From assembly GCF_964213995.1 (NCBI RefSeq), contig NC_135816.1, forward strand, positions 38,192,001 through 38,256,000: a stretch of DNA of 64,000 nt. The letters run 5' to 3'. Position numbers and translations under genes: made by a program. This DNA is from Mustelus asterias (taxonomy: Eukaryota). This document shows, in pieces, positions 3,093 through 60,741 of the stretch (within the stretch, counting starts at the first letter, position 1; each line of letters opens with the position of its first letter). The notes beneath the pieces were generated by a model. It was not told where the DNA came from, did not search any database, and was given only the letters and a program-made list of their open reading frames with translations.

Positions 3093-4945
3093 TGTAGAAT
3101 GTTGTGTGATCCTCAAATCACCGACATCAAAGACTTCCAACAAAGGTAGTTTATTTCTCAGTTCAACAGCCACATACAATACTTGTGCCTTGCCTGAGAT
3201 CCTGGGGTATGTAGCGTGTCATCATGTTCTCACATGACCACTCGGTCTACATCTTCCCCATTTAGTTGAGACACCTGGTGGCATGAGATGCAACAGTGTG
3301 CGCCATAGAAAATTATGTAAAGACCATTGTGTAACATGCAATAAAACAAACTGATAATGGACATCTAATTACACATATATATTGAGGCACAGATCATCCC
3401 GTACCAACTGGTGCATAGCCCTTCCTTTCACCTCCACGCCCCCTCCCCCCTCCCACCCTTTTCTGTTGGAAAGAAAGTTGAACTTCAAAAGTCAATTAAA
3501 GGCTAAGTGGTAATAAAGTCCTGGAATTTTGTATTCAGCCTGCTCAGGCACCCTGAGCATGTGATTACACTGGTAGATGGTGTTGTGGCCTTTCTGTGAC
3601 CAGTGTTCTCACTGGTAGCAGCATGGGACTTTTCATCTCAGTGTTCATGAGGTGCAAGAGTAGCTGCATTGGCTTCTGTCAGAATCTGCACGTCTGCTGG
3701 TGCAGGGGGCTGGTGCCAGAGGCTGGCTGACTGTAGTGGTGTGTTATCTGTTGGTGCTGGTTCTGCTACATGCAGAAAATGACGGCGATTGCTCGTCATA
3801 TGCTAAAAATTGCAAAATTCAGTGACAATGAATTGGCGAGCGTCGTCTGTCACGAGTCTCTGTGGGATGCCATGTGTAGCGACGTGTCTCTTAAGCTTCC
3901 TCATTACTGTTTTACTCATCATGTTTGGCAGGTAGTTGAGTTCAAACCACCCGGAATACGAATCAACTAAGACTAAATGTTGTTTACCATTTCACTCAAA
4001 GACGTTGGTTGCTGTGAATGCCCATGGGAGATCCGGAACCTCATGTAAATGCAATGGTTCCTTTGCTTGACATGACTTACGTGTATTGCATGGTGCGCAT
4101 CTGGAGATTTCCTTTTCCATGTCTGTATATATGGAGTCCGAATACAGTGATTCCTTGACCCTGTATCTGGATGCTTCCAACCCAAGGTGCCCTTGATGCA
4201 GTTATTGTGTGCAGTATCTCTGTAGAGCAGTACGGATGACAAATCACTGACAACACAGTATTAGTCCATATTGTATGAATGGTCAGCTCATGTCTGATGG
4301 CAAAGAATGCGGAGCTTGTGAAGTTCCCTTGAGGGTTCTGGCCGACTCCTGATGATGACGTTGTATAGTTGCCTGCATATGATCTCTGCCTGTAAAGCCT
4401 GTTTGAGTTCCTTAATTTGCGAGAAGACAACACCTCTATTGCCATAATGTCGATGTCTTCCTCATGATCCACCTCATCTGTGGTGGGTAAGAAAGCTCTG
4501 GAACGGGCATCAGTCAAGTACAGATCATTGCCACATTTGTAGGCAATACTGAGGTTGTAGCATTGCAACTTTAGCATCATGCATTGCAGCCATGCAGACA
4601 CAGTGTGGAGAGGCTTCTTTAAGATAGTTATGAGTGGTGATCTGTTTCAACCATTGCAGGGAGACCATATATGCAATCATGAAATTTCTGTCAGGCGGAG
4701 ACTAGAGCAAGAAGTTCCTTTTCGATCTGTGCATAGTGAGTATCAGTGTCAGTGAGAGCCCTTGAAGGAAAGGCTATTGGTCTGCCATTCTGGATGCAGA
4801 CTGCACCAAGTCCATGTTGATATGGGTACAGGTGCTTGAACATCAAAGTATTGTAATAACGGTAGGGTTGCGAGTGCTTGTTTGAGTCTGTTGAAGGCCG
4901 CTGTGCGGTACTTTGACCAGCACCATTCAATGTCCTGGTCTAGCA
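3093..4945 (-). mobile_element. Degenerate Gypsy pol relic (RNase H / integrase) with possible LTR at the left end
   Basis: GLGAVCIQNGRPIAFPSRALTDTDTHYAQIEKELLA, ETDHQPL; multiple frameshifts. Confidence 0.8.
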
Positions 4946-5029
4946 TGATTAAGTAAGAGATTGTTCACTGAATCATTTTGAATTACACCAATGACTATGT
5001 CTAGATTGGAACAATCAATAAATTAGGTT

Positions 5030-7050
5030 TACTGCTCGCGAAGAGGGTTTAAGATTAGTGATTATTTGAAAAGCTCTTGAGAGGTTAAAAAAGCTTTTGT
5101 GATTAAGGGTAGATAAATATTGTCTTCAATTTTGTGTAAAATATTGGTATCGATTATCAGGAGTAATCCTGAAGATTATCTATCAAACAGCCAACACATC
5201 TTTTACAGGCAGGATCCTGACTAACTAATGTCTTTGATTTATTTAAGGAAGTGATAGGCCCAGTGTTGTGTATCTAGATTTCCAAATGCATATGATAAAA
5301 TTTCATGCAATAGGTTACTAGATTTTCCTCAAAACTGTGAGGAGATTCAGGGTAAGACTTGGGAATGGTTAAGTAATTTGCTGATAAAAAGGAATAACAA
5401 ATACTTTGTTAGAGGGGTCAAGTGGGAAGTACTGAATGGGATGCAATAGAGTTGATGTTGGGGGAACTACTGTTTCTAATTTACGACATTAACTTTGATT
5501 GAGAGCCTCAATGTAAATTGTTCAAATTTGCAGATGATACCAAACCAGGAAGGAGAGTGGAATCTAAGGAGGCTGCCATAAATTACAGAATACGTTAAAA
5601 CATATGAGTAAGTAGAACAATGGTAGATAACATTTTAATGCAATAATGTCAACTGCTGAATAAACAAAGGGAAAATGCAAACTCCACCACATTCTCAAAG
5701 GAATTAGGAATGAGAATAAATGCCAGCCTTGCTAACAACACTCTTACCCCAAGAATCATATTCAATTGGTCATGCCTCTATTCCATGAAAGGTATTGAAA
5801 TGACTAAAAGATTAAGTTGATAGGAGTCTAGAGTTTTAGTGTATTTGATTTTTAGTATGTCAAGCCAATGCAGAGTGGCAAAGAATAATATCAGCATATT
5901 GAATTACATGGCCAAAACAGAAATATAAAGTTAGAGGAAGTTGAGATCCAATTGTCAATGCCCTGGTCAGATCATATCTTGAATATTGTTTCCAGTTGTG
6001 ATCACAGTTAAACAGGAGAGACATTCAAATTCAAGAAGCAGTGTAGAGCAGAACCATGAGACTGATCTCTTGCGTCAGAGTCAAGATTAGAGGGAAGGAC
6101 TGGGGAGAATTTGGCTTTCCAGCTTTAAAGTAAAGCAAAAGGTAAACACATATTTATTTAAATTATTGTGACAGTATTCAAATTAGTGGGAGATACATTT
6201 ACTCATGATGACGTTGTATAGTTGCCTGCATGTGATCTCTGCCTGTAAAGCCTGTTTGAGTTCCTTAATTCGCCGAGAAGACAACACCTCTATTGCCATA
6301 ATGTCGATGTCTTCCTCATGATCCACCGCATCTGTGGTGGGTAAGAAAGCTCTGGAGCGGGCATCAGTCAAGTACAGTTCATTGCCACATTTGTAGGCAA
6401 TACTGAGGTTGTAGCATTGCAACTTTAGCATCATGCATTGCAGCCATGCAGACACAGTGTGGAGAGGCTTCTTTAAGATAGTTATGAGTGGCTGGTGATC
6501 TGTTTCAACCATTGCAGGGAGACCATATATATAATCATGAAATTTCTGTCAGGCGGAGACCAGAGCAAGAAGTTCCTTTTCGATCTGTGCATAGTGAGTA
6601 TCAGTGTCAGTGAGAGCCCTTGAAGGAAAGGCTATTGGTCTGCCATTCTGGATGCAGACTGCACCAAGTCCATGTTGATATGAGTACAGGTGCTTGAACA
6701 TCAAAGTATTGTAATAACGGTAGGGTTGCGAGTGCTTGTTTGTCCGTTGAAGGCCACTGTGCGGTACTTTGACCAGCACCATTCAATGTCCTGGTCTAGC
6801 ATGATTAAGTAAGAGATTGCTCACTGAGTCATTTTGAATTACAATGATGTCTAGATTGGAACACATTTAGCACTGAACCCTGAAAGTTTAATTCACACAG
6901 AGTGACCAACACTTAGAATAGTGGAGGCAAAATTCAGGGATCATTTAAAAAACAATTAAAGTGGCAATGACGGAATGGTAGGTTTCTTCTGGATGAAAGA
7001 AATAAGATGAGCCAGTTGATTTTCCTCATCTAGAGATGATATGATTTAAC
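5030..7050 (+). mobile_element. Old degenerate CR1-like LINE, interrupted by the 6205-6863 duplicate
   Basis: tatctagattttccaaatgcatatgataa (YLDF..AYD) and ttcaaatttgcagatgatacc (KFADDT) remnants. Confidence 0.65.
6205..6863 (-). repeat. Near-identical duplicate of 4352-5013 (Gypsy RNase H relic plus flank)
   Basis: Sequence is directly alignable with few substitutions and indels. Confidence 0.92.
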
Positions 7051-9162: not shown

Positions 9163-9444
9163 AAGTTTATTTATTAGTATCACAAGTAGGCCTACATTAA
9201 CACTGCAATGAAGTTACTGTGCAAATCCCCTAGTTGCCACACTCCAGCGCCTGTTCAGGTACACTGTGGGAGAATTTAGCATGGCCAATGCAACTAACCA
9301 GCACGTCTTTCGGACTGTCGGAGGAAACTGGAGCACCCGGAGGAAACCCACGCAGACACAGGGAGAGCGTGCAAACTCCACACAGACAATGGCCCAATCT
9401 TGGGTCCCTGGCACTGTGGGGGAGCAGTGCTGTGCCACCGTGCT
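9163..9444 (-). mobile_element. HE1-like tRNA-derived SINE
   Basis: Shared body GGAGGAAACTGGAGCACCCGGAGGAAACCCACGCAGACACAGGGAGA with the other copies in the window. Confidence 0.85.
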
Positions 9445-11625: not shown

Positions 11626-11849
11626 AAGATCTTGGGGGTGATTCTCCAATTTCGCTGCACTAATTTTTCAGCGCAGTGGGTTAGGAGAATCTCGCGGCGG
11701 CCAATGCGCAGGATTTGTGCATGTGTTCCTGTCTCATAGCGTCTCCCAGTGCCGGATTTCCAGCAGCATCATATCCACGCCGGGAATGAAGTCTCCGGGC
11801 TCGCTAGGCTCCTACCCCACCCTTGCCAGGAGTATTTCACTCCAGCGGG

Positions 11850-12178
11850 TGATGCGCGTTATCACACACGAGGCTTGAGATGCTCAGGAAATAAAGGCTT
11901 TTATTTGCTGTACAACGAAGCTACTAATTATATACACGATCCCAGACTGAGGGGTCCCAGACAGTGCAGAGACCTTTATACCTCTCCCAGGAGGCGGAGC
12001 CCGACTGGGATGTACCACAATAACTATAATACAAGGTGTAACAGCCCAACCCTAACCCCAACAGCAACAAGTAGAACAACCCATCCCTAACCCCAACAGC
12101 AACACATATACATACTTGTAGTACTGGCCAGACCCTGGCTCAGTACTATCTAGTGGGAACCAACGATGGTTCACCACA
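11850..12178 (-). repeat. 3' LTR of the Gypsy element
   Basis: Direct repeat of 16284-16612; preceded on the minus strand by a polypurine tract at 12179-12192. Confidence 0.95.
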
Positions 12179-12240
12179 TTCACCCCTCCTTTGAAGGCAA
12201 AGGCCGGCGGGGTACAAAAACAGAATAATTTGTCATCAGT

Positions 12241-14823
12241 CTATAAGTTCAGACGGTCAGGGGGACCGCACCGTCGTTGTGACCTCCTCAATACTGGCGA
12301 TGACACCGGAGTAGGCACTCGCGGTGGCTTTCTCCCCAAGGCGATGTCCAACTGTTCCTCCACAGACTCACGGGCCGGTTGACCCTGAGGTGATGGTAAT
12401 CCATGGAGTTCCGACACGCCCTGAAGTGGCGACCATCCTCTGGACTCAGGCAAGCTGTACACGGGAGTCAAAGGGTTAAGTAATGGTCCCGATGCTGCCT
12501 GCGCCGTGTCCGGAGGGGAAACAAGAGTTATGGGGTTTGTAACAGGGGGTATGGGAGCGACAGGGGTTCCTACGTCCCCTGCTGGCGCCAGGTCTCGGAT
12601 CGAGACCGTGTCCTCTCGCCCGTCAGGGTATGCCACATAGGCATACTGAGGGTTGGCGTGGAGGAGATGGACCTGTTCGACCAACGGATCGGACTTGCGG
12701 GCCCTTACATGTCGCCGCAGGAGGACAGGTCCTGAGTACGTCAACCAAGACGGTAATGAGGTCCCAGAGGAAGACTTCCGAGGGAATGAAAACATCCTCT
12801 CATGGGGAGTAGCGTTGGTTGCCGTACACAGGAGTGAGCGTATGGAATGGAGCGCATCAGGGAGCACCTCTTGCCAACGGGAGACTGGAAGGCTTTTTGA
12901 CTTCAACGCCAGTAAGACAGCCTTCCAGACTGTAGCATTCTCACGTTCCACCTGTCCGTTACCCCTAGGGTTGTAGCTCGTGGTTCTACTAGAGGCAATC
13001 CCGTATGAGAGCAGGTATTGCCTCAAGTCATCGCTCATGAACGACGAGCCCCTGTCGCTGTGAATGTAGCTGGGGTACCCGAACAGTGTAAAAAGATCAC
13101 GGAATGCCTTGATAACCGTGGCAGCGGATGTATCAGAGCAGGGAATAACAAAAGGGAATCTCGAGTACTCGTCAATGATGTTGAGGAAGTACACATTCCG
13201 ATCTGTTGAGGGAAGGGGGCCCTTAAAATCGACACTCAGTCTCTCGAAGGGACGAGTGGCCTTGACTAATTGTGCCCGGTCAGGTCGGTAAAAGTGCGGT
13301 TTGCATTCCGCGCATACCCGACAGCTTCTTGTTATGGACCTGACATCCTCCACCGAGTAGGGCAGATTGCGGGCTTTTATAAAGTGGTAGAGCCGAGTGA
13401 CCCCAGGATGGCATAGGTCATTATGGAGAGCCTGCAAACGGTCCTCCTGTATACTGGCGCATGTTCCACGCAAGAGGGCATCCGAGGGCTCATTGAGTTT
13501 CCCTGGACGATACATGATGTCATAGTTATAGGTGGAGAGTTCAATTCTCCACCGCAAGATCTTGTCGTTCTTGATCTTGCCCCTCAGCGTGTTATTAAAC
13601 ATGAACGCCACGGACCGCTGGTCTGTGATCAGGGTGAACCGTTTTCCCGCCAAGTAATGGCGCCAGTGCCTGACGGCCTCCACAATGGCCTGGGCCTCCT
13701 TTTCCACCGCTGAATGCCGAATTTCAGGGCCTTGGAGGGTGCGGGAAAAAAAGGCGACGGGCCTGCCCGCCTGGTTAAGTGTGGCGGCCAGGGCGAAATC
13801 AGATGCATCGCTCTCCACCTGAAAGGGGATGGACTCATCAACAGCGTGCATCGTAGCTTTCGCGATGTCGGCTTTTAGTTTATCAAAGGCCAATCGGGCC
13901 TCTGGTGTTAGGGTAAAAGAAGTGGACTTGATGAGCGGACGGGCTTTGTCCGCGTAATTGGGAACCCACTGTGCATAATAAGAGAAGAAGCCTAAGCATC
14001 TTCTCAGTGCTTTTGCACTAGTGGGCAGGGGAAGTTCAAAGAGGGGACGCATACGGTCTGGATCAGGGCCAATGACCCCGTTTTTCACCACGTATCCGAG
14101 GATGGCTAAACGGCGCGTACGAAACACACACTTCTCCCTGTTGTAGGTCAGGTTCAGGCGAGATGCAGTGCATAGGAAATTCAGGAGATTTGTGTCATGG
14201 TCCTGCTGGTCATGGCCGCAGATGGTGACGTTATCCAGGTACGGGAAGGTAGCCCGCAGCCCGTTCTGGTCCACCATTCGGTCCATAGCACGCTGGAAGA
14301 CCGAGACCCCATTGGTGACACCAAAGGGAACCCTGAGAAAGTGACACAAGCAACCATCCGCCTCAAAAGCCGTGTATTGTCGGTCCTCTGGGCGAATGGG
14401 GAGTTGGTGGTAGGCAGACTGGAGGTCTATGGTGGAGAACACCCGGTACTGTGCAATCTGATTGACCATGTCAGATATGCGCGGGAGGGGATACGCATCC
14501 AACTGCGTGTATCTATTAATGGTCTGACTATAGTCAATGACCATCCGGGGTTTGTTCCCACTCTTGACCACCACGACCTGCGCTCTCCACGGACTAGCGC
14601 TAGGTTGTATGATCCTTTCCTTGAGGAGCCGCTGAACTTCAGATCGAATGAAGATCCGATCCTCAGCGCTGTAACGCCTACTCTTAGTCGCAATGGGCTT
14701 GCAGCCTGGCACAAGATTCTGGAACAGGGAGGGTGTGGTAATCCTCAGCGTCGAGAGGCTACAGGCGCGTTGGGCAATTTGGAGGCTGCTGTTCTCCCAC
14801 TGAAAGCGAAGGGAGTGGCCCAC
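12241..14823 (-). CDS. Gypsy Pol: RT, RNase H, integrase (frameshifted relative to Gag-PR near 14765)
   Basis: 860-aa ORF: RMVIDY, IDLQSAYHQ, PFG, YLDN (RT); SDASD..EKEAQA..TDQ (RNase H); H-H-C-C, VDFKGP, HSDRG, VERENA (IN). Confidence 0.93.
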   Translation of the reverse strand: MGHSLRFQWENSSLQIAQRACSLSTLRITTPSLFQNLVPGCKPIATKSRRYSAEDRIFIRSEVQRLLKERIIQPSASPWRAQVVVVKSGNKPRMVIDYSQTINRYTQLDAYPLPRISDMVNQIAQYRVFSTIDLQSAYHQLPIRPEDRQYTAFEADGCLCHFLRVPFGVTNGVSVFQRAMDRMVDQNGLRATFPYLDNVTICGHDQQDHDTNLLNFLCTASRLNLTYNREKCVFRTRRLAILGYVVKNGVIGPDPDRMRPLFELPLPTSAKALRRCLGFFSYYAQWVPNYADKARPLIKSTSFTLTPEARLAFDKLKADIAKATMHAVDESIPFQVESDASDFALAATLNQAGRPVAFFSRTLQGPEIRHSAVEKEAQAIVEAVRHWRHYLAGKRFTLITDQRSVAFMFNNTLRGKIKNDKILRWRIELSTYNYDIMYRPGKLNEPSDALLRGTCASIQEDRLQALHNDLCHPGVTRLYHFIKARNLPYSVEDVRSITRSCRVCAECKPHFYRPDRAQLVKATRPFERLSVDFKGPLPSTDRNVYFLNIIDEYSRFPFVIPCSDTSAATVIKAFRDLFTLFGYPSYIHSDRGSSFMSDDLRQYLLSYGIASSRTTSYNPRGNGQVERENATVWKAVLLALKSKSLPVSRWQEVLPDALHSIRSLLCTATNATPHERMFSFPRKSSSGTSLPSWLTYSGPVLLRRHVRARKSDPLVEQVHLLHANPQYAYVAYPDGREDTVSIRDLAPAGDVGTPVAPIPPVTNPITLVSPPDTAQAASGPLLNPLTPVYSLPESRGWSPLQGVSELHGLPSPQGQPARESVEEQLDIALGRKPPRVPTPVSSPVLRRSQRRCGPPDRLNL

Positions 14824-16228
14824 CGTACTGTAGGGTTACACTCCTCAAGTGGACCATGAAGTTTAGTCCGAGAAGTATTGGCGCGCAAAGGTGCGGCAAC
14901 ACTAGGAGCTTGAAACGCTCGTAAACTGTGCCTTGCACCGTTAAAGTTACCACGCAACTCCCTAGCACGGTGACAGACCGGGACCTTGATGCCATAGAAA
15001 TTGTCTGTTTGACAGGTTGAATCTGGAGTCCACACCGCTTCACAGCGTCTGGGTGGATAAAACTCTCAGTGCTCCCGCTGTCAAACAGACAATAAATCAA
15101 GTGGTCGTTTACCTGAATGTCCATCATAGACTTGTCAAGTCTATGAGGCTTGGCCTGGTCCAGGATGATCGACGCCACTGTTGGTTCATGAGCGCCACTG
15201 CAGGCAGCTGAGATTGACGAGGATGACCCCTGCTGGTCGTTTGCGGTCGGTGCCGACCAACATGGCCGCTCCCATAGGTCGCACGTGGGTGATGGCGCCA
15301 AACTCAGCGACCCCTGGTGGTCACACATCTCCGACTCCGTCGACCGTAATGGCGTCGTCCTAGCCTCGCACGTGGACGAAACCCTTGACGATGTCGACGA
15401 CGAAGAACCGGGCTCTGAGGAATCGCAGGCCGCACTGCTGTTCCGAGAAGCAGGTTTAGATCGGCACACTTTCGAATAGTGCCCCTTCTTACCGCAGGCG
15501 GAGCACAACACAGATTTAGCGGGACACTGTTGCCGAGTATGCTTCGCTCCCCCACAGAAGTAACACCGCGGGCCGCCCGGAGCTGCTGCCGTCGTCTGGC
15601 CCGAGTGTGAGCACGCCATCACGCAGCATTTCGAACCCGAGGGACGAGGAGGGATTGTCGACTGCTCCTGCCACGTTGTCTCCACGTGGTCTTCAGGATA
15701 CAATACTAGGCTTTTGGAGGCCATCTCCAACATCTCCGCTAGTTCTATTGCCTGGGTGAGGTCAAGGTTACCTTTCTCCAGTAGTTTGAGTCGGATGTAA
15801 GATGATCCGACTCCCGCCACAAACGCATCTCGAGCGAGGTCGTTCATATTCTGCTCTGCCGACACTGCTTTGCAGTTACAGCCCCTGGCTAGCTGTAGGA
15901 GCTCGTTCGCGTATTCCTCCATCGTTTCGCCAGACTGCCGTCGTCGAGTGGCTAAGAGGTAACGAGCGTGTATTTCGTTGGGCGGTTTAATATAACGCTT
16001 CTTAAGAAGCTCGAGGGCCTTTGTGTAGTCGGTGGCCGCACGGATCGCGAGGTAGACGGTGTCGCTTACCCTCGCATGGAGGACCCGGAGTCTGTCATCA
16101 TCTGTGGTGACCGCTGCGGAGGCTGCCAGGTAGTCCTCAAAACATTTCAACCAGTGGTCGAAGGTGTTAGAGGCGCCCACCGCACGTGGATCTAGTGTAA
16201 GGCGTTCAGGCTTCAGTATCTGCTCCAT
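14759..16228 (-). CDS. Gypsy Gag (two CCHC knuckles) plus aspartic protease
   Basis: 489-aa ORF with CYFCGGAKHTRQQC and CSACGKKGHYSKVC zinc knuckles and protease motif LFDSGSTESFI. Confidence 0.92.
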   Translation of the reverse strand: MEQILKPERLTLDPRAVGASNTFDHWLKCFEDYLAASAAVTTDDDRLRVLHARVSDTVYLAIRAATDYTKALELLKKRYIKPPNEIHARYLLATRRRQSGETMEEYANELLQLARGCNCKAVSAEQNMNDLARDAFVAGVGSSYIRLKLLEKGNLDLTQAIELAEMLEMASKSLVLYPEDHVETTWQEQSTIPPRPSGSKCCVMACSHSGQTTAAAPGGPRCYFCGGAKHTRQQCPAKSVLCSACGKKGHYSKVCRSKPASRNSSAACDSSEPGSSSSTSSRVSSTCEARTTPLRSTESEMCDHQGSLSLAPSPTCDLWERPCWSAPTANDQQGSSSSISAACSGAHEPTVASIILDQAKPHRLDKSMMDIQVNDHLIYCLFDSGSTESFIHPDAVKRCGLQIQPVKQTISMASRSRSVTVLGSCVVTLTVQGTVYERFKLLVLPHLCAPILLGLNFMVHLRSVTLQYGGPLPSLSVGEQQPPNCPTRL

Positions 16229-16283
16229 ACTCTCTCTATATCGTTTTTTTTTTCGACGAGAGTTTATTTACAGCAAATAAAAT

Positions 16284-16612
16284 TGATGCGCGTTATCACA
16301 CACGAGGCTTGAGATGCTCAGGAAATAAAGGCTTTTATTTGCTGTACAATGAAGCTACTAATTATATACACGATCCCAGACTGAGGGGTCCCAGACAGAG
16401 CAGAGACCTTTATACCTCTCCCAGGAGGCGGAGCCCGACTGGGATGTACCACAATAACTATAATACAAGGTGTAACAGCCCAACCCTAACCCCAACAGCA
16501 ACAAGTAGAACAACCCATCCCTAACCCCAACAGCAACATATATACATACTTGTAGTACTGGCCAGACCCTGGCTCAGTACTATCTAGTGGGAACCAACGA
16601 TGGTTCACCACA
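16284..16612 (-). repeat. 5' LTR of the Gypsy element
   Basis: Direct repeat of 11850-12178; contains TATAAA (16409-16414) and AATAAA on the minus strand. Confidence 0.95.
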
Positions 16613-17788
16613 GCGGGGTTCAGAATACCTCCCCACTTTCAGGGAGTGAGTGGCCTGACCCCGCTGGAGTGAAGGGGGTACAATCAGGGCCCCCCGGAGA
16701 ATTGGGCGGTTGGTGGGGGGGGGGGGGGGGCGGTGGTGAGGGCCGGCGTTGCGAGGATCACAGTTCACAGTGCTGGCAGGCAATCGAGAGGCCGGCAGTG
16801 CGGGGCTATTGCGTATACGCTGACATATCAGCACATGCCGATTTCAGCCTCTCCCATGGGGGATAGGCCCAACACACTAATTTATAATGATATACACGCT
16901 AGTGAACTCTGCAGTACATAGTGTGTGGGAGATTCTTCTCTGAGCTCCCACTGAAAAATCCAGCGTGAACTACTTAGAATTTTTTTGGGAGAATTCTGGC
17001 CTAAGTTTGTTTACGTTATGACTCAGAGTCAGGAAAAGTTTCAGAGTTAACAACTGTTACAGATAACATGGCAGAAAGTAATGTTGCTGTGGGCAGAGGT
17101 TCCTGTGTTTCCAGGTTTGCCAGTTGACTCTGCTAGGGGAGTGGAAGAGGAATGTTGATGTACAGATTCTCAATCTACCTCTTCACCTACAATTCCAGGT
17201 CAACAAGATTCACCAGTCGTGTGGCATAGGTTGCAACATAACCGCAGAGCTCCTGCCAGACTTTCATATTACTTTTGTTGTATTTCTGTCCTGATGAGGA
17301 ATTAAAATTTAAAGGGAGGAGAAATGTTACAGAGTGGTATTTTCAGTGTCCTTATAAGCCTTGCTCCAATGCAATTGTTTTACTGGCATCTGTTGAGGTT
17401 TCTGAGCATGTGCGGTCTTTGATGGGCTTTTCTGCAAGAGGGTGACCTGTAAGCAAGGCCTGTCTTACTAGTGCTCCTGTTTTCATAGTTATTGTTGTTG
17501 CTAATCTGCTGAGTTAGTGTTAAACTTTATTACTTATTTATATAAAGAAATTCCTTCTTTGAAACAATGCTTTTGACTATCTTAGTTGTGGTCCCAAGTC
17601 TCCACAAGAATAATTTACCACACATCCACTTTAGGCTGTATCATGTGCCCAGACTATCTCCTGCATTTTGATTTCCAGCTGTAGACCCCAGGCCTACACC
17701 TCACCATCTTTTGTTTAAAACTTAGATGCCTGGGCCAGATGGTGGATTGTGATTAAGACTTCCTCTGGTCAGTGACATATCAGTCATG

Positions 17789-17917
17789 AGTTTGTGTCTT
17801 TATATGCCCTGTTTGTGAACAGAACTCCCACTCATCAGATGAAGGAGCAGTGCTCTGAAAGCTTGTGCTACTAAATAAACCTGTTGGACTTTAACCTGGT
17901 GTTGTGAGACTTCTTAG
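17789..17917 (+). mobile_element. Penelope terminal fragment (same family as 35094-36046)
   Basis: gagtttgtgtctttatatgccctgtttgtgaacagaactcccac...aataaacctgttggactttaacctggtgttgtgagacttct. Confidence 0.85.
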
Positions 17918-20900
17918 TGACAGGTGTACAGTGATGCTGACTTCCTCTGGTCAGTGATTCACCAGTAGGCCTGCCAATAAAACCAGCTACCTCTTATCTT
18001 CCCCATTCAGCATGGGTTTGAAGGGAATATGTTCTGTTGTTTTCAAAATGGTTGGGAGTTATTTCAACTAATGGACCTGGAATTATACAATTAATTTTCA
18101 CATTGTATCAGTTGTGATACTCACAAACTCACCTGTTTAGTTCTAATATATGTTATCAGTGGGTTCAGCCCGTGGTTTATTCAAAAACTATTGAGGACTC
18201 ACTTGGCTTTAAAACACAACATTTATACATAACTCAATCCCAAAATTATTTCTGTTGCGAAAATTTTTTTTTTTAAATTCTGAAGTACGACATGAATCTT
18301 TTGGAGTTCCCATATGTTAAAGAATTGCTAGTATCTAATGCTTAGATAAGTGTCGTCAATTGGGCTGCACATGTTTGATAATTCAGTTACTAGAGGTGCT
18401 GCAAGTTCTCAAGTTGCTGTCTCCTTTGGGGAAAGTGACATATGAGATGTCCTGACTAACAAGATTGCAGTGATCTGCTTGATGAAATGGTGTGTAAATG
18501 ATTCTCTGAGCTGGCAATTGTCAACAGAGGGGATTTGAAATTTCCTTCCAACCACATACCATATTGACCTGCATTGGGTCAACCTGGTACTCCATCCCTA
18601 ACAGCATTATGGGTGTACATACACAATTTGGATTGCTGCGGTTCAAGAAGGTGGCTCACCACCACCTTCACTACGGCAATTAGGGATGGGTAACAAATGC
18701 TGGCCTAGCCAGTGATGCCCAAATCCTATGAAATAATACATTTTTAAAAATGAGTAGGTGGCATAAAAGTTCAATACTTTGGTGATTTGGACAATGAGTA
18801 AGAATTTCCTCCAAAGTTAGTGGACAAGTAGTCAGTCAACTTGACTGCTCCCTGCTGAATTGTAGATGGAAAAAACATGTGTCTTCCAACATGGGAGTGA
18901 CTGCTGGGCCACTGTCAGTGGGCACCAGATGTCTGAGATATCATCACAGCTGTTCTTCACCACCCCCTGCTAGAATTCCTTTTCCTTTCAATCTAGTTTA
19001 TGGGTTGACTGAGGTTTGTTCTTGCAGCTGCAGAGTCAAGTGGTGGCAACAAGATTACTGCTGTTGGAGATTTGTACCCAGAGAATGCTGAACTGCAGAA
19101 AACAAGCAAAAACAAAACACTCGTTATCGTGTACAACATTTAGTTTGGCTAGTGAAAAATAGTAGTCAATAAAATGTAATTCTCACAAATCTGACAAACC
19201 TCAGTATGGAGCACCTCTGAAGTGAAGTTCTTATTGAGGTTGCAGGTCTCCCGGTGCTCGTCTTATGTTGGATTACATAGTATCTCAGCATCGAATGAGC
19301 TCAGTGCATGGCCTTCAAAATAGGGTAATGTTTTCCCATGTAGAATTTGGAGTTCAGTGCCCATTTCACTAAACTGACCTCAATTTGGTGGGTTTTGTAT
19401 GGCACTAAATAGGGACCCCTCGTCAAATCATACATTGGGGTAGGTGCCCTATGTCTGGAAGACATCTGGGCTGTGCAATAGTGTTAAGTACCATTCAGTT
19501 AACCTTAACCTACCTAAAAACATAATGCCAACATGCTTGGTATACTTACTTCTTCCTCTATACATAGCATGTTTGCTTGTTATTGCAGCTGTTTGTTCCC
19601 ACTATGTGTTTCTGGATTCAGTCTTTTAGATGGTTTCCACAAGAAAATGGGCTGAGTTTTGATGGAACAACTGACTTTTGACCGTGACTGTCTTTGTTTT
19701 GCAAATGTCATTAGTAAACAGGCACCATGCTGATCTGCTGAATGGAACTGTCGGTCAAATTCAATAAAGGCAACAAAAGCTAAGGAAATTAAACCTTTTG
19801 GGTTTCCTAGTCATGTAATTGATCACATTGCTTACAATGTCAGAACAGCAAAGCAGATTTTGCTAATATTTCCTCAAGTCTTTTGATATCCAGTAAATTG
19901 TTGCATTTGTACAGCAATCAGTATGATATATAACATAAAAAGATAAAGTGAAAAAAATTGTGATGTGGAAGCTTTTATTTTCTTGGGATTCTACTGGAGT
20001 AGCAAGCATTTCAGACCTCCTCTAGTTTTCCAACATTCAAGAAAATCTGTTGGACTTTTAAAATGTTTTTGATAGCTATAAATGTAACCAGTGAAATAGA
20101 ATGATTGCAATATATAAATAAGTTGGCAGAAATATATTTTAACAGAAAATTTAACAGGGATAATTAATTATTCTGCCTCTGCTCTGGAAGAGATGAAATA
20201 TACTGATGTATGACAACACCAAATGCATCATTCTTGTGGGCCCAGGCAGTGATTGTTGGTAAGCTGTTTGTCAGTAGGAACCAGGCCCACATCCACACTT
20301 GCTGGTTTTCTGGATTGTGACCAGGAGTCAAAATCATTGCTGTTCCTTCAATAAATGGAAACAAAAGTCTTACACTATCCTATCTGACATTATTCGATTG
20401 CATTGGTTCAATGAAAAGGCTTATTACCACCTTCATAAGGCAGCAAGTATGGAAAATAAATTTGGACTTGCCAGTGATCCCTACATACCAGAACAAATCA
20501 AAAATGTTCCAGGAGGTGGAATCATGGCTTGATACTTTTTAAATAGGATAAGCTTTTGTATTGTGTTCTGCTTTTACAGGGTTTCAATATACAGCCACAA
20601 TTTATTACTTTAACTGATTTTCCTGACAAAAATAAATTGATGTACTGATTTTTATTGCAGACTTGGATAAATGAGTAGATTTATTTTGCTCGAAGATTAG
20701 TATCATCACTCATATGTATGTTATTTTTGTGTCTCAGAGCCCAATCCTTCTACAGTTTACACTGCAGGGATCTTTAGTCTAAATTGTACCACCATCTAAC
20801 TTGCAATACGTCCTGGTGATAGGCCCCATTTCCACCAGGAACTTCACTGCAGGGAACTTAAATATGATCCTTCCCACCGCCGATCTTTGCTCACTGTTAG

Positions 20901-35093: not shown

Positions 35094-36046
35094 ACAGGAC
35101 ACGGCGGACAGAGTACCCTTCGTCGTCCAGTACTTCCTCGGAGCAGAGAAGCTACGACATCTTCTCCAGAGCCTTCAACATGTCATTGAAGACTACGAAC
35201 ATCTCGCCAAGGCCATCCCCACACCCTCACTTCTTGCCTTCAAACAACCGCACAACCTCAAACAGACCATTGTCCACAGCAAACTACCCAGCCTTCAGGA
35301 GAACTGTGACCACGACACCACACACCCCGGCCACAGCAACCTCTGCAAGACGTGCTGGATCATCAACATGGATGCCATCATCTCACGTGAGAACACCATC
35401 CACCAGGTACACTGTACATACTCTTGCAACTCGGCCAACGTTGTCTGCCTGATACGCTGCAGGAAAAGATGTCCCGAGGCATGGTACATTGGGGAGACCA
35501 TGCAGACGCTACGACAACGGATGAATGACCACCGCTCGACAATCACCAGGCAAGAGAGTGTTCTCTTCCTGTTGGGGAACACTTCAGCGGTCACAGGCAT
35601 TCGGTCTCTGATCTTTGGGTAAGCGTTCTCCAAGGCGGCCTTCACGACACACAACAATGCAGAGTCGCTGAGCAGAGACTGATAGCCAAGTTCCGCACAC
35701 ATGAGGACGGTCTCAACTGGGATCATGTCACACTATCTGTAACCCCCACGACTTGCCTGAGCTTGCAAAATCTCACTAACTGTCCTGGCTGGAGACAATA
35801 CACATCTCTTTAACCTGTGCTTAACCCTCTCTCCACTCACATTGTCTGTACCTTTAAGATTTGATTACCTGTAAAGACTTGCATTCCAACCATTATTTTG
35901 TAAATCGAGTTTGTGTCTTTATAGGCCCTGTTTGTGAACAGAACTCCCACTTACCTGATGAAGGAGCAGCGCTCCGAAAGCTAGTGGCTTTTGCTACCAA
36001 ATAAACCCGTTGGACTTTAACCTGGTGTTGTGAAACTTCTTACTGT
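35094..36046 (+). mobile_element. Penelope-like element 3' part (GIY-YIG), family A
   Basis: CNSANVVCLIRCRKRCPEAWYIGETMQTLRQRMNDHRS; flanked by 10-bp direct repeat GAGAATCCCA (35084-35093 / 36047-36056). Confidence 0.9.
35947..35987 (+). ncRNA. Minimal type-I hammerhead ribozyme motif in the Penelope terminus
   Basis: CCAC-ttac-CTGATGA-A-GGAGC agc GCTCC-GAAA-GC-TA-GTGG: core boxes, stem II hairpin, CCAC/GTGG stem I. Confidence 0.7.
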
Positions 36047-37113
36047 GAGAATCCCATACCACAGTATGTCATGGATAAGATATATTTTGCACAGTTTTGC
36101 CTTGAAAAGTGGCATTATGTAGGTTCCAGAGGAAACTAGCACTCTACTGTATTAAGGCAATCGGCAAGATGAAAACAGAGGCTTTATAGAAGAATCTATT
36201 CGCAACTTCAAGAACCATTCTACAAACTTACATAGAGATCTCATTGCAACAAAGAAAGTCAGTTAAAATTAGCAATCCTGCCTACATCTTCAACACAAAT
36301 ACCACTAAACTACTGTCACCTACAGTGTCTTAATTCCTATTAAACTCCCAAAACTCATTCCTACCAGCTGTTGAACCGTGATGCAAAATCTTAGAAGTAA
36401 TGATCTCTGCAAACAGCCCAATTGCAATTCTAACAACTTATTGATAACGCTACAAAACATATGTGCATCACCATTGTTTGGTTTTCCACTGTTTCCTCTT
36501 GGTGATTGTATGTCATATATCTTATCTTACCAAATTTAGCATTTCATTGTTATCTCAAGGTCAGGAGTGTGCAAAATGTTTCATGACCATAAAATTTGAA
36601 AAACCTCTTGGTTATTCAAATGACTCATCTCTGGCAGCTGGGCCTGAGGTAGACCTGCTACAGACTTCTGCACTTTTGAATCTGCAGGGATACCTGTCCC
36701 CAAGTCGTTACTGGAGTGTTTATGATATTGTAAGATTGTGGAAGGAGCAAATTAGGTCAAAGAGATCATAAATCATGCTCATTGCAGCCATGTTCCTATT
36801 GCTGGGACTGTCTCAGTATGTCTGAGGCAATGATGCACTTCAGCCTCTGGAATGGAGGAATCTGCTGCAAACATCCCTGAACATGCTATATTCTCTGTGA
36901 TGGACTGTGGTAATGTGAACCTGTCATGTAAAGTTGTGCATATTTGGCTAATGAAATAACTACCCTTTAACTTGCTCACAAAACAACCTAAGCTGATGCT
37001 TGTGATATATGCAGTGCAATTGTAGCATGACGGGATGGAGAGGACTCAGGTCCTTCTTTACAGGATACCTCCCTACATGCAACACAGACATTTGGGTCTG
37101 CAGTGCAGACATT

Positions 37114-37770
37114 GGGGCAACACGATGGCACAATGGTTAGCCTCACAGCACCAGGGACCCAGATTCGATTCCCGGCTTGGGTCACTGTCTTTGCGGAGTC
37201 TGCACGTTCTCCCCATGTCTGCATAGATTTCCTCCGGGTGCTCCGGTTTCCTCCCACAGTCCGAAAGACCATAGAACCCCTACAGTGCAGAAAGAGGCCA
37301 TTCGGCCCATCGAGTCTGCACCGACAACAATCCCACCCAGGCCCTATCCCCATATCCCTACATATTTACCTGCTAATCCCCCTCACCCTCATATTTACCC
37401 GCTAGTCTATGCATCCCGGGACATTAAGGGGCAATTTAACTTGGCCAATCAACCTAACCCACACATCTTTGGACTGTGGGAGGAAACCGGAGCACCCGGA
37501 GGAAACCCACACAAACACGGGGAGAATGTGCAAACTCCGCACAGACAGTGACCCGAGCAGAGAATCGAACCCAGGTCCCTGGAGCTGTGAAGCAGCAGTG
37601 CTAACTACTATGCTACCGTGCCGCCCCCATGCTGGTCAGATGCATTGGCTATGCTAAATTCTCTGTGCACCCGAACAGGCGCTGGAGTGTGGTGACTAGG
37701 GGATTTTCACAGTAACTTCATTGTTTGACAGTGTTCATGTAAGTCTACTTGTGACACCAATAATAAATAT
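37114..37770 (+). mobile_element. HE1-like SINE with a second HE1-like copy inserted in reverse orientation (~37268-37627)
   Basis: Plus-strand head at 37114 breaks at ..ccgaaaga and resumes at 37628 with gctggtcagatgcattgg. Confidence 0.85.
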
Positions 37771-51120: not shown

Positions 51121-51411
51121 AAGTAAAAGTAAAGTTATTTATTAGTGTCACAAGTAAGGCTTACATTAACATTGTAATGAAGTTACTGTGAAATTCCCCT
51201 AGTCGCCACATTCTGGCGCCTGTTTGGGTCAATGCATCTAACCAGCACGTCTTTCAGACTGTGGGAGGAAACCAGAGCACCCAGAGGAAACCCACGCAAA
51301 CACAGGGAGAGTGTGCAAACTCCACACGGACAGTGACCCAATCCAGGAATCGAACCTCGGTCCCTGGTGCTATGAGGCAGCAGTGCTAACCACTGTGCCA
51401 CCATGCTGCCC
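51121..51411 (-). mobile_element. HE1-like SINE
   Basis: B-box GGTTCGATTCC on the minus strand; same body as 9163-9444. Confidence 0.88.
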
Positions 51412-58711: not shown

Positions 58712-58805
58712 TCTGACGAAGGAGTAGCGCTCCGATAGCGAATGGTGTTTGCTGTCAAATAAACCTGTTGGACTTTAACCTGGTGTTGTTAAAACTCTTA
58801 CTGTG
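58712..58805 (+). mobile_element. Penelope terminal fragment with decayed hammerhead core
   Basis: CTGACGAAGGAGTAGCGCTCCGATAGC...AATAAACCTGTTGGACTTTAACCTGGTGTTG. Confidence 0.75.
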
Positions 58806-59432
58806 ATCTCCCTAGGATGCCAGTTGAGTTTTTTGAAAGTGTACTTCATGTGGAGCCTGGAGCTGCTGAGCTTAGGTTAATGGCAAATCCTTCACCGTTT
58901 TTAATTCATTCAAGGAATGTGGGCTTCGCCAGCATTTATTGCCCATCCCTAATGGCCCTTGAGAAAGTGGTGGTGACCTGCCTTTGTGAACCAGTGCAGT
59001 CCAGTCCATGTAGTGTAGGTACACCCACAGTGCTATTAGATAGCGAGTTCCAGAATTTTGACCTGGCAACAGTGAAGGAAAGGCAATATAGTTCCAAGTC
59101 AGGATGGTGAGTGGCTTGGAGGGGAACTTCCAGGTGTATTCCATGTATCTACTGCCTTTGTCCTTCTAGGTGGTAGTGGTCGTGGGTTTGGAAGGTGCTG
59201 TCTAAGGAAACTTGATGAGTTCCTGCAATGCATCTTGTAGATGGTACACACTACTGCTATTGTGCATCAGTGGTCGCAGGACTGAATATTGTGAATGGGG
59301 TGCCAATCAAGCCCTCGATGGTGTCAAGCTTGTTGAGTGTTGTTGGAGGTGCACTCATCCAGATAAGGGAAAAGTATTCCATTCACTCCTGATATACCTT
59401 GAAGATGGTGGACAGGCTTTGGGGAGTCAGGA

Positions 59433-60741
59433 TGTAAGGTTTGAATAAAACCCTTCTAATTGAAAAATACTCGAGGTCTGACTAGGATCCTCAGTTAGAA
59501 TCATAGAAACCCTACAGTGCAGGAGGAGGCCATTCGGCCCATCGAGTCTGCACCGACCACAATCCCACCCAGGCCCTACCCCCACATATTTACCCGCTAA
59601 TCCCGCTAACCTACACATCCCAGGACACTAAGGGGCAATTTTTAACCGGGCCAATCAACCTAACCCGCACATCTTTGGACTGTGGGAGGAAACCGGAGCA
59701 CCCGGGGGAAACCCATACAGACACGAGGAGAATGTGCAAACTCCACACAGACAGTGACCCGAACCGGGAATCGAACCCGGGACCCCGGAGCTGTGAAGCA
59801 GCAGTGCTAACCACTGTGCTACCGTGCCGCCGAGTTGTGCTTGACCTATAAGGTATGAATAACTAGTATTTATGAATCAAGCAGAATTTATAAAGCAATA
59901 TTTTACATAGATTTAACAAAGAAAAAGTGAAGACAACATATAAGTCTCTCAAGATCCCTGAAATTCTTGGTGTTGTCAGCACAACTGGTGTCTCTCTTTT
60001 TCTTTCAGGTGATATTGAACTGTGTCCAAAAGAGTCGTACCCCAGGAGCCATGGTATCACTGTGCTAACAAAGACACAAATTTTTCAATTTTCATACATT
60101 AGTCTCTCATTATTCAGCAATTCCCTTTTTTGTAGATGGTCCAAATTCGCCCCTCCTTTTGGCTATAGGGTGCAAATCATCCCGTGTCACCCCACCTTTG
60201 GAACCTCTGCTTTTTGGATTGTAAACTGAAACATAGCATTATACCGTTCAGACCACAGACATTTACATTCCATTACAAACAAATGTATATTTCCTTCCAG
60301 ACACACACAAGCTGTAAATAAAGTCACATTCTCATGTCAGCATATTTAACCCACACTAAAGCTGTAAAAATCAACAGATAAGGCCACTTCCTATCATAAT
60401 ATCAGAGAGTAGGTACAGATCAATTAAAGCAATACATGATTTGTTTAAACATAAGGTATCGTCCTAAGTTCACAATGTTTTTAGCCATTCCTTGAAACTG
60501 AATTTAAAAAAACACCTAATTGTATTGAGGGCTGTTAAGACACATACTGCTACTTCAGCTCAAGGCTCAAAAGGAACTCAGTCATAAAACAATTTGGTTT
60601 CTTCACAAACACAAGCCCTCCTGTAAAGCATTCCAACTAGCAGAAATTCAAACTGATTTATTTAATTTAAACTATGATTACAGAATAAAATCCATAGATA
60701 TAACAGATTCTAAAAATTAGTAGAATTATCAAAATCTTACA
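59433..60741. mobile_element. Probable solo LTR (~970 bp without the nested SINE)
   Basis: Termini TGTAAGGTTTGAATAA ... TTATCAAAATCTTACA (imperfect inverted); 4-bp TSD-like AGGA/AGTA; no ORF. Confidence 0.65.
59495..59831 (-). mobile_element. HE1-like SINE (young, CpG-intact)
   Basis: Minus strand GGCGGCACGGTAGCACAGTGGTTAGCACTG (A box) ... GGGTTCGATTCCC (B box). Confidence 0.9.

Follow-up and report, generated by a model that had tools for sequence, protein, structure and literature searches.

In LTR elements, the primer of minus-strand synthesis has to end at the base after the LTR, and priming defines that LTR end; during plus-strand synthesis, the primer end is recopied into the primer site. 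In Tf1, the transcript's initial 11 bases serve as the primer, and RNase H cleavage falls between bases 11 and 12 (PMC7175516, PMC4600332). In the literature examined, self-priming has been shown for Tf1 alone and is a prediction for its chromovirus relatives and for a single lineage of plant Copia elements; for the Tcn1 chromoviruses and the plant TAR (Houba, Osr-1) Copia elements, the prediction was made from the complementarity between primer site and LTR (PMC6317226). Almost all chromoviruses carry a chromodomain at the integrase end (PMC2774666).

The locus that is compared here with these systems lies in a 64-kb stretch of DNA from the shark Mustelus asterias, which was analysed as a whole and is referred to as the window. 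According to its TG...CA LTRs, the target-site duplication, the polypurine tract and the order protease-RT-RNase H-integrase, the element is of the Ty3/Gypsy type (Table 1), and the solved structure nearest to its proteins is that of Ty3. Both LTRs are 329 nt long, which corrects the initial annotation of this DNA, and they differ from each other at three positions. Target-site duplications of 5 bp were found in 66 of the 71 family copies checked. In the window copy, gag-protease and pol are out of frame with each other because of a frameshift between protease and RT (14759-14835), and a gag-pol frame of more than 1,300 aa was uninterrupted in 7 of 100 family copies. No chromodomain was found in a Pfam scan of the pol frame in the window, nor among the domains listed for 120 relatives, and Rfam gave no match across positions 16100-16700. 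Elsewhere in the window, a local direct duplication (4349-4997 and 6202-6853; spacing ~1.85 kb, pieces 93-99% identical) and dispersed short repeats, probably SINE or LINE ends (9188-9399, 17788-17922, 35907-36048, 37270-37723, 51157-51410 and 58713-59831), were observed.

Table 1. Positions of the Gypsy element and of its predicted replication signals in the 64-kb window.
Feature	Position	Strand	Remark
Gypsy LTR retrotransposon, young copy	16612-11850	minus	LTRs, target-site duplication, polypurine tract, domains
Target-site duplication CCCGC, upstream copy	16613-16617	minus	
5′ LTR	16284-16612	minus	329 nt; TG...CA ends; ends ...GCATCA at 16284
TATA box, conserved	16409-16414	minus	32-33 nt ahead of initiator-like A
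Initiator-like TCAGT	16380-16384	minus	predicted transcript start 16382, ~36 nt upstream of arm
Second TATA-like box, not conserved	16362-16368	minus	absent in 5/12 arm types
LTR arm, likely self-primer	16333-16346	minus	13-nt core 16345-16333; predicted cut between 16333 and 16332
Loop, comprising U5 and the remainder of R	16284-16332	minus	predicted template of minus-strand strong-stop DNA (putative role)
Primer-binding position	16269-16282	minus	begins two bases past LTR end; exact complement of arm
gag (two CCHC fingers) and protease frame	14759-16228	minus	starts at ATG 16228
RT (YLDN), RNase H, integrase frame	12241-14835	minus	without chromodomain
Polypurine tract	12179-12192	minus	directly before 3′ LTR
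3′ LTR	11850-12178	minus	329 nt; 3 differences from 5′ LTR
Target-site duplication CCCGC, downstream copy	11845-11849	minus	

After the end of the 5′ LTR (16284), a single A (16283) is followed by TTTTATTTGCTGTA (16282-16269 of the minus strand), which is the exact reverse complement of TACAGCAAATAAAA (16346-16333) across a loop of 50 nt; the latter segment contains AATAAA at 16339-16334. The initial annotation had pointed out both this 14-mer, with its match to the LTR segment carrying AATAAA, and the lack of a TGG-type tRNA primer site directly after the 5′ LTR of the window copy, and all its coordinates for the pairing proved correct. Its statement that the pairing is only possible at the 5′ LTR was too strong, since a 3′ copy of the segment or a second RNA molecule could pair there. 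Within the window, this is the sole perfect inverted repeat of at least 14 bp with a loop of at most 60 nt, and none of 10 shuffles of the window contained a comparable one. The folding z-score for 16265-16346 was −4.5, and in the leader of the window copy the poly(A) signal was predicted to be paired with a probability of 0.91-0.99.

Sister families were recruited by searching the genome with the gag ends of two ray relatives. At least five were found. In each of them, the LTR is followed by A-TTTTATT and then by bases peculiar to the family, and the family's own LTR has a matching segment that ends in AATAAAA. A search pattern in which only the anchors were fixed matched 6,009 times in the genome, the reversed control not once. 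From 260 own-genome loci examined, 247 had a readable junction. As the first five pairs were set by the search pattern and 100 loci were picked by arm type, only positions 8-13 are informative; each of these was Watson-Crick paired in 237-245 of the 247 copies, compared with 182 for position 14 and 59 for position 16. When the 15 arm/site types with at least two copies were aligned, all core cells (195/195) were Watson-Crick and no G-U was present in the 13-base core. Seven of the 13 core pairs were invariant across these types, six had changed on both sides, and none had changed on one side only. The double-change cells numbered 46, versus 16.6 ± 2.9 in shuffles, which is not to be read as a probability because the types are related and the changes not independent. 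The four pairs beyond the core were paired in 57.6% and included G-U, which sets a sharp limit at 13 bases. In own-genome copies, the paired segment usually starts at LTR end +2.

Covariation between site and LTR segment, which the initial annotation had put forward for checking, was thus found: arm and site changes compensate each other across families, and complementarity was lost in none of the 15 recurrent types. Individual copies could also be inspected. Where both LTR arms were readable (n = 160), arms and site fully agreed in 126; in 12, the arms were alike and the site different (mostly single private changes), 10 sites matched the 5′ arm only, 7 the 3′ arm only, and in 5 all three differed. 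At locus L371, the site and the two LTRs share one mirrored change, although the background otherwise carries the other allele; at locus L087, arm and site jointly depart from their own family. As a separate observation, the 5′ and 3′ LTR arms of loci L192, L194, L217 and L296 are of different subfamily types, which suggests inter-copy recombination or intermolecular strand transfer.

The nearest named relatives of the element are from rays and a catshark (70-80% identity) and from a sea anemone (62-63%). A metagenome scan yielded 80 loci, of which 72 were retained after excluding six in which the match began inside gag and two with too little upstream DNA; many of the metagenome loci come from a single assembly. 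In 54 of the 72 loci, 12 or all 13 of the core positions formed Watson-Crick pairs in an unchanged register, which none of 285 shuffles achieved. Counted by family (best member), 21 of 30 reached at least 12/13 pairs and 20 reached 13/13; the nine families below this threshold are truncated, decayed, or paired over just 9-11 bases. In the 13 metagenome loci whose end is cleanly fixed by both LTRs, the paired segment again lies at LTR end +2. On a quick tree, the pairing was spread over the main branches with upstream DNA, including a YxDD member (L125), and three metagenome loci clustered with the sea-anemone protein. The matches of an integrase search came mostly from one family, and no relatives were found among viral contigs. 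A tRNA 3′-end site (TGG start) after the 5′ LTR was absent from the window copy, from the 13 metagenome loci with LTR-fixed ends and from the own-genome copies. In several families, the distance from LTR to ATG is just 15-23 nt, which leaves no space for a separate tRNA site. In loci L062, L070, L078 and L109, the primer-binding segment makes up the entire leader (15-18 nt) and ends at the gag ATG, so that the helix could affect translation.

The site differs among families yet always matches the own LTR, and this, together with the short leaders, implies that a host tRNA is not needed. Reverse transcription is therefore very probably primed by the element's own RNA in some form, as judged from sequence comparison; the self-priming that the initial annotation had deduced is strongly supported by the covariation in the genome and in the metagenome relatives. 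A fuller description of this young Gypsy family, in which the primer site pairs with the element itself, the primer is own RNA released by an internal cut and then recopied, and hiding of the poly(A) signal is a side function in sharks, is considered reasonably probable. Transcription would begin at the TATA/initiator pair (16382), and the R segment ending in AAUAAAA would fold onto the primer site. The RNA would then be cut after the A run (between AAA and GCC), probably by the element's RNase H as in Tf1, yielding a capped primer of ~50 nt. From there, RT would copy the ~50-nt loop and jump to the 3′ R via the stretch that separates the cut from the poly(A) site. Plus-strand synthesis would finally copy ~13 primer bases back into the site, which would make it an exact complement in each generation. 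An added advantage for the shark families would be that this helix conceals the 5′ poly(A) signal.

Where the transcript starts decides whether the arm is internal. The initial annotation had listed two TATA-like boxes (16414-16409 and 16368-16362), from which either a Tf1-like or an internal position of the paired segment would follow. Both are present, and as far as promoter motifs go, the conserved upstream box speaks for the internal position and the non-conserved second box against the Tf1-like one. In 198 of 247 copies, which represent all 12 arm types, GTATAAA was found 32-33 nt upstream of an initiator-like A. The arm end follows this A at a distance of 50-55 nt, or of 74 nt in a single family. 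The upstream TATA/initiator pair thus probably places the arm inside the transcript, and the primer would be an internal piece, unlike that of Tf1. That the transcript instead starts at or just before the arm, with the first 13-19 RNA bases as the primer and a single cut, is unlikely but the best of the alternatives: a short primer would be a simple account of the 13-base limit, two shark family groups have an initiator-like CATT 18-19 nt before the arm end, 184 of 247 copies contain the second TATA-like box, and alternative starts are described for Tf2 (PMC5341516). Against this geometry, the second box, besides missing from some arm types, lies just ~18-24 nt upstream, the spacing of the upstream TATA/initiator pair is canonical in 12/12 arm types, and several families have a pyrimidine, not a purine, at position −13. 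In loci L047, L052, L053, L058 and L059, a 13-bp inverted repeat upstream of gag links U3 with the beginning of R, around the TATA box; it could form only at the RNA 3′ end, and shorter forms seem to be present in other families.

The arm usually has an A run at its end, followed by RCC. In 16 of 25 metagenome representatives, compared with 13% of shuffles, the predicted cut is also where a hairpin of at least four pairs begins (one locus is off register by one base). A run, RCC and hairpin together suggest that the RNA is cut at the end of the A run. In the RT of Ty3, ~13 bp separate the polymerase and RNase H sites (PMC5371799). Perfect, G-U-free pairing that stops at 13 bases looks like the product of copying rather than of helix selection, although strict selection on the helix alone could also yield perfect pairing without recopying. 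With a long primer, the plus strand would have an unpaired end if copying did not halt near 13 bases, and this halt is an assumption. To place the first strand jump behind the arm, crossovers were mapped in 55 elements that belong to one subfamily group, by linkage between gag, primer site, loop, arm and U3. Among the LTR sites, the two in the loop, one of them a CpG, broke linkage most (16 and 24 of 54 pairs), and the 21 upstream sites did so in 1-8 pairs. The loop signal was not replicated in 81 elements of the window's family, where the loop was no more reshuffled than the other parts. Locus L346 fits a crossover between arm and loop, as a single case.

Because the segment is present in both LTRs, DNA cannot distinguish which copy primes, and the primer could be the 3′ R copy or other element RNA (a short or a second transcript) instead of a folded-back 5′ R. 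This is improbable, given that a local fold is favoured by the short loop (32-73 nt), by the hairpin that begins where the cut is predicted and by the high pairing probability predicted for the leader.

Even less probable is that the helix is a poly(A) switch, which hides the 5′ signal while something else primes. It would be consistent with the predicted pairing of the signal in the leader and with the shark arm types, all of which end in AATAAAA, the sequence on which the searches were anchored. However, 13 of 25 metagenome representatives pair without the canonical hexamer in the arm: in 12 the hexamer is in the arm, in 4 in the loop only, and in 9 in neither. Moreover, the helix sits at the only place where a primer can bind, and masking needs neither the fixed register at LTR end +2 nor the exclusion of G-U. 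Masking, which the initial annotation had considered beside priming, may be a side function in shark families and is not general, considering that 12/25 relatives carry the hexamer in the arm. The local hairpin that had been described around the same signal (16340-16323) exists in the window but is not conserved (86/247 copies, 2/12 arm types).

The notion that a host tRNA, a tRNA half or another small RNA primes and the LTR match is secondary is extremely improbable, as the site lacks the initial TGG, varies by family and matches the own LTR each time, and the longest complement was 7 nt in a screen that spanned just 28 tRNA gene sequences of six amino acids, even though half-tRNA primers are known in Copia lineages (PMC6317226, PMC10886601). 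Separately, tRNA-Lys(TTT) and tRNA-Thr genes were observed in a tandem cluster with ~1.8 kb spacing (L141-L170, G000:C16, about 97.2-98.6 Mb).

If priming by the element's own RNA holds, these elements would need no host tRNA. In the RT with which they replicate, asparagine usually takes the place of the third catalytic aspartate. YxDN replaces YxDD in 88 of 121 proteins (P0002-P0122; 28 have YxDD, 5 were unread), in 35 of the 37 metagenome loci whose motif could be read and in 151 of 152 shark copies, and the quick tree requires at least seven switches between the two states. The YLDN motif had no match in the accessible text of the literature searched or of the supplements of PMC6238403 and PMC13524379. 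As changing YxDD to YxDN blocks transposition of Ty1 (PMC2148107), a reverse transcriptase that has YxDN by nature is interesting to enzymologists. More tentatively, and with slightly less than even confidence, it is proposed that self-priming arose independently in a large clade of animal Gypsy elements outside the chromoviruses, in a geometry unlike that of Tf1: an internal cut directly after the A run (in sharks, the poly(A) signal), a long capped primer, exactly 13 bases recopied in each cycle and a single helix that would both start replication and, in sharks, hide the 5′ poly(A) signal. A second abundant animal Gypsy clade of this kind, of which one genome contains at least 6,000 copies with the junction, would show independence from tRNA to be common and would account for elements that annotation pipelines score as "no PBS". 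In self-priming elements, the target through which tRNA 3′ fragments silence LTR elements (PMC7472051) would also be missing. Exact, testable positions of the RNA and cDNA ends follow from the 13-base rule together with the predicted cut.

Gypsy elements of the Mag lineage are compact (4-5 kb), have a single gag-pol frame and two CCHC fingers, and reside in marine animals. By description only, the present elements resemble them in their compact 4-5 kb, their one gag-pol frame, their marine animal hosts and their two CCHC fingers, which were found in 78 of the 92 proteins with an N terminus. In retroviruses, the 5′ poly(A) signal AAUAAA is occluded in a leader helix, as in the poly(A) hairpin of HIV-1. 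Here, in contrast, the partner strand is the primer site, and the hexamer lies outside the helix in about half of the relatives. Pairing with the own LTR in a non-chromovirus animal Gypsy clade was not described in the accessible text of the literature searched (PMC3601003, PMC6934838 and PMC11042837 included), a scope outside which Repbase and GyDB entries and most subscription papers lie. The Tcn1 and TAR elements belong to other hosts and lineages, and the accessible text of PMC6317226 does not place their primer at the poly(A) signal. Closest are Tf1 and Tf2 of S. pombe, Tj1 of S. japonicus and the Tf1/sushi chromoviruses, which likewise are Gypsy elements without a tRNA site and with a primer site that complements their own LTR. 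Unlike the Tf1/sushi group, the present elements have no chromodomain, a core pairing of at least 13 bases and mostly a YxDN RT; unlike in Tf1, the arm's predicted position is 36 nt into the transcript, and the shark arms carry the poly(A) signal. The family appears to work in the manner of Tf1 self-priming and, by its features, would be set apart from Tf1/sushi through the missing chromodomain and a primer that is probably internal.
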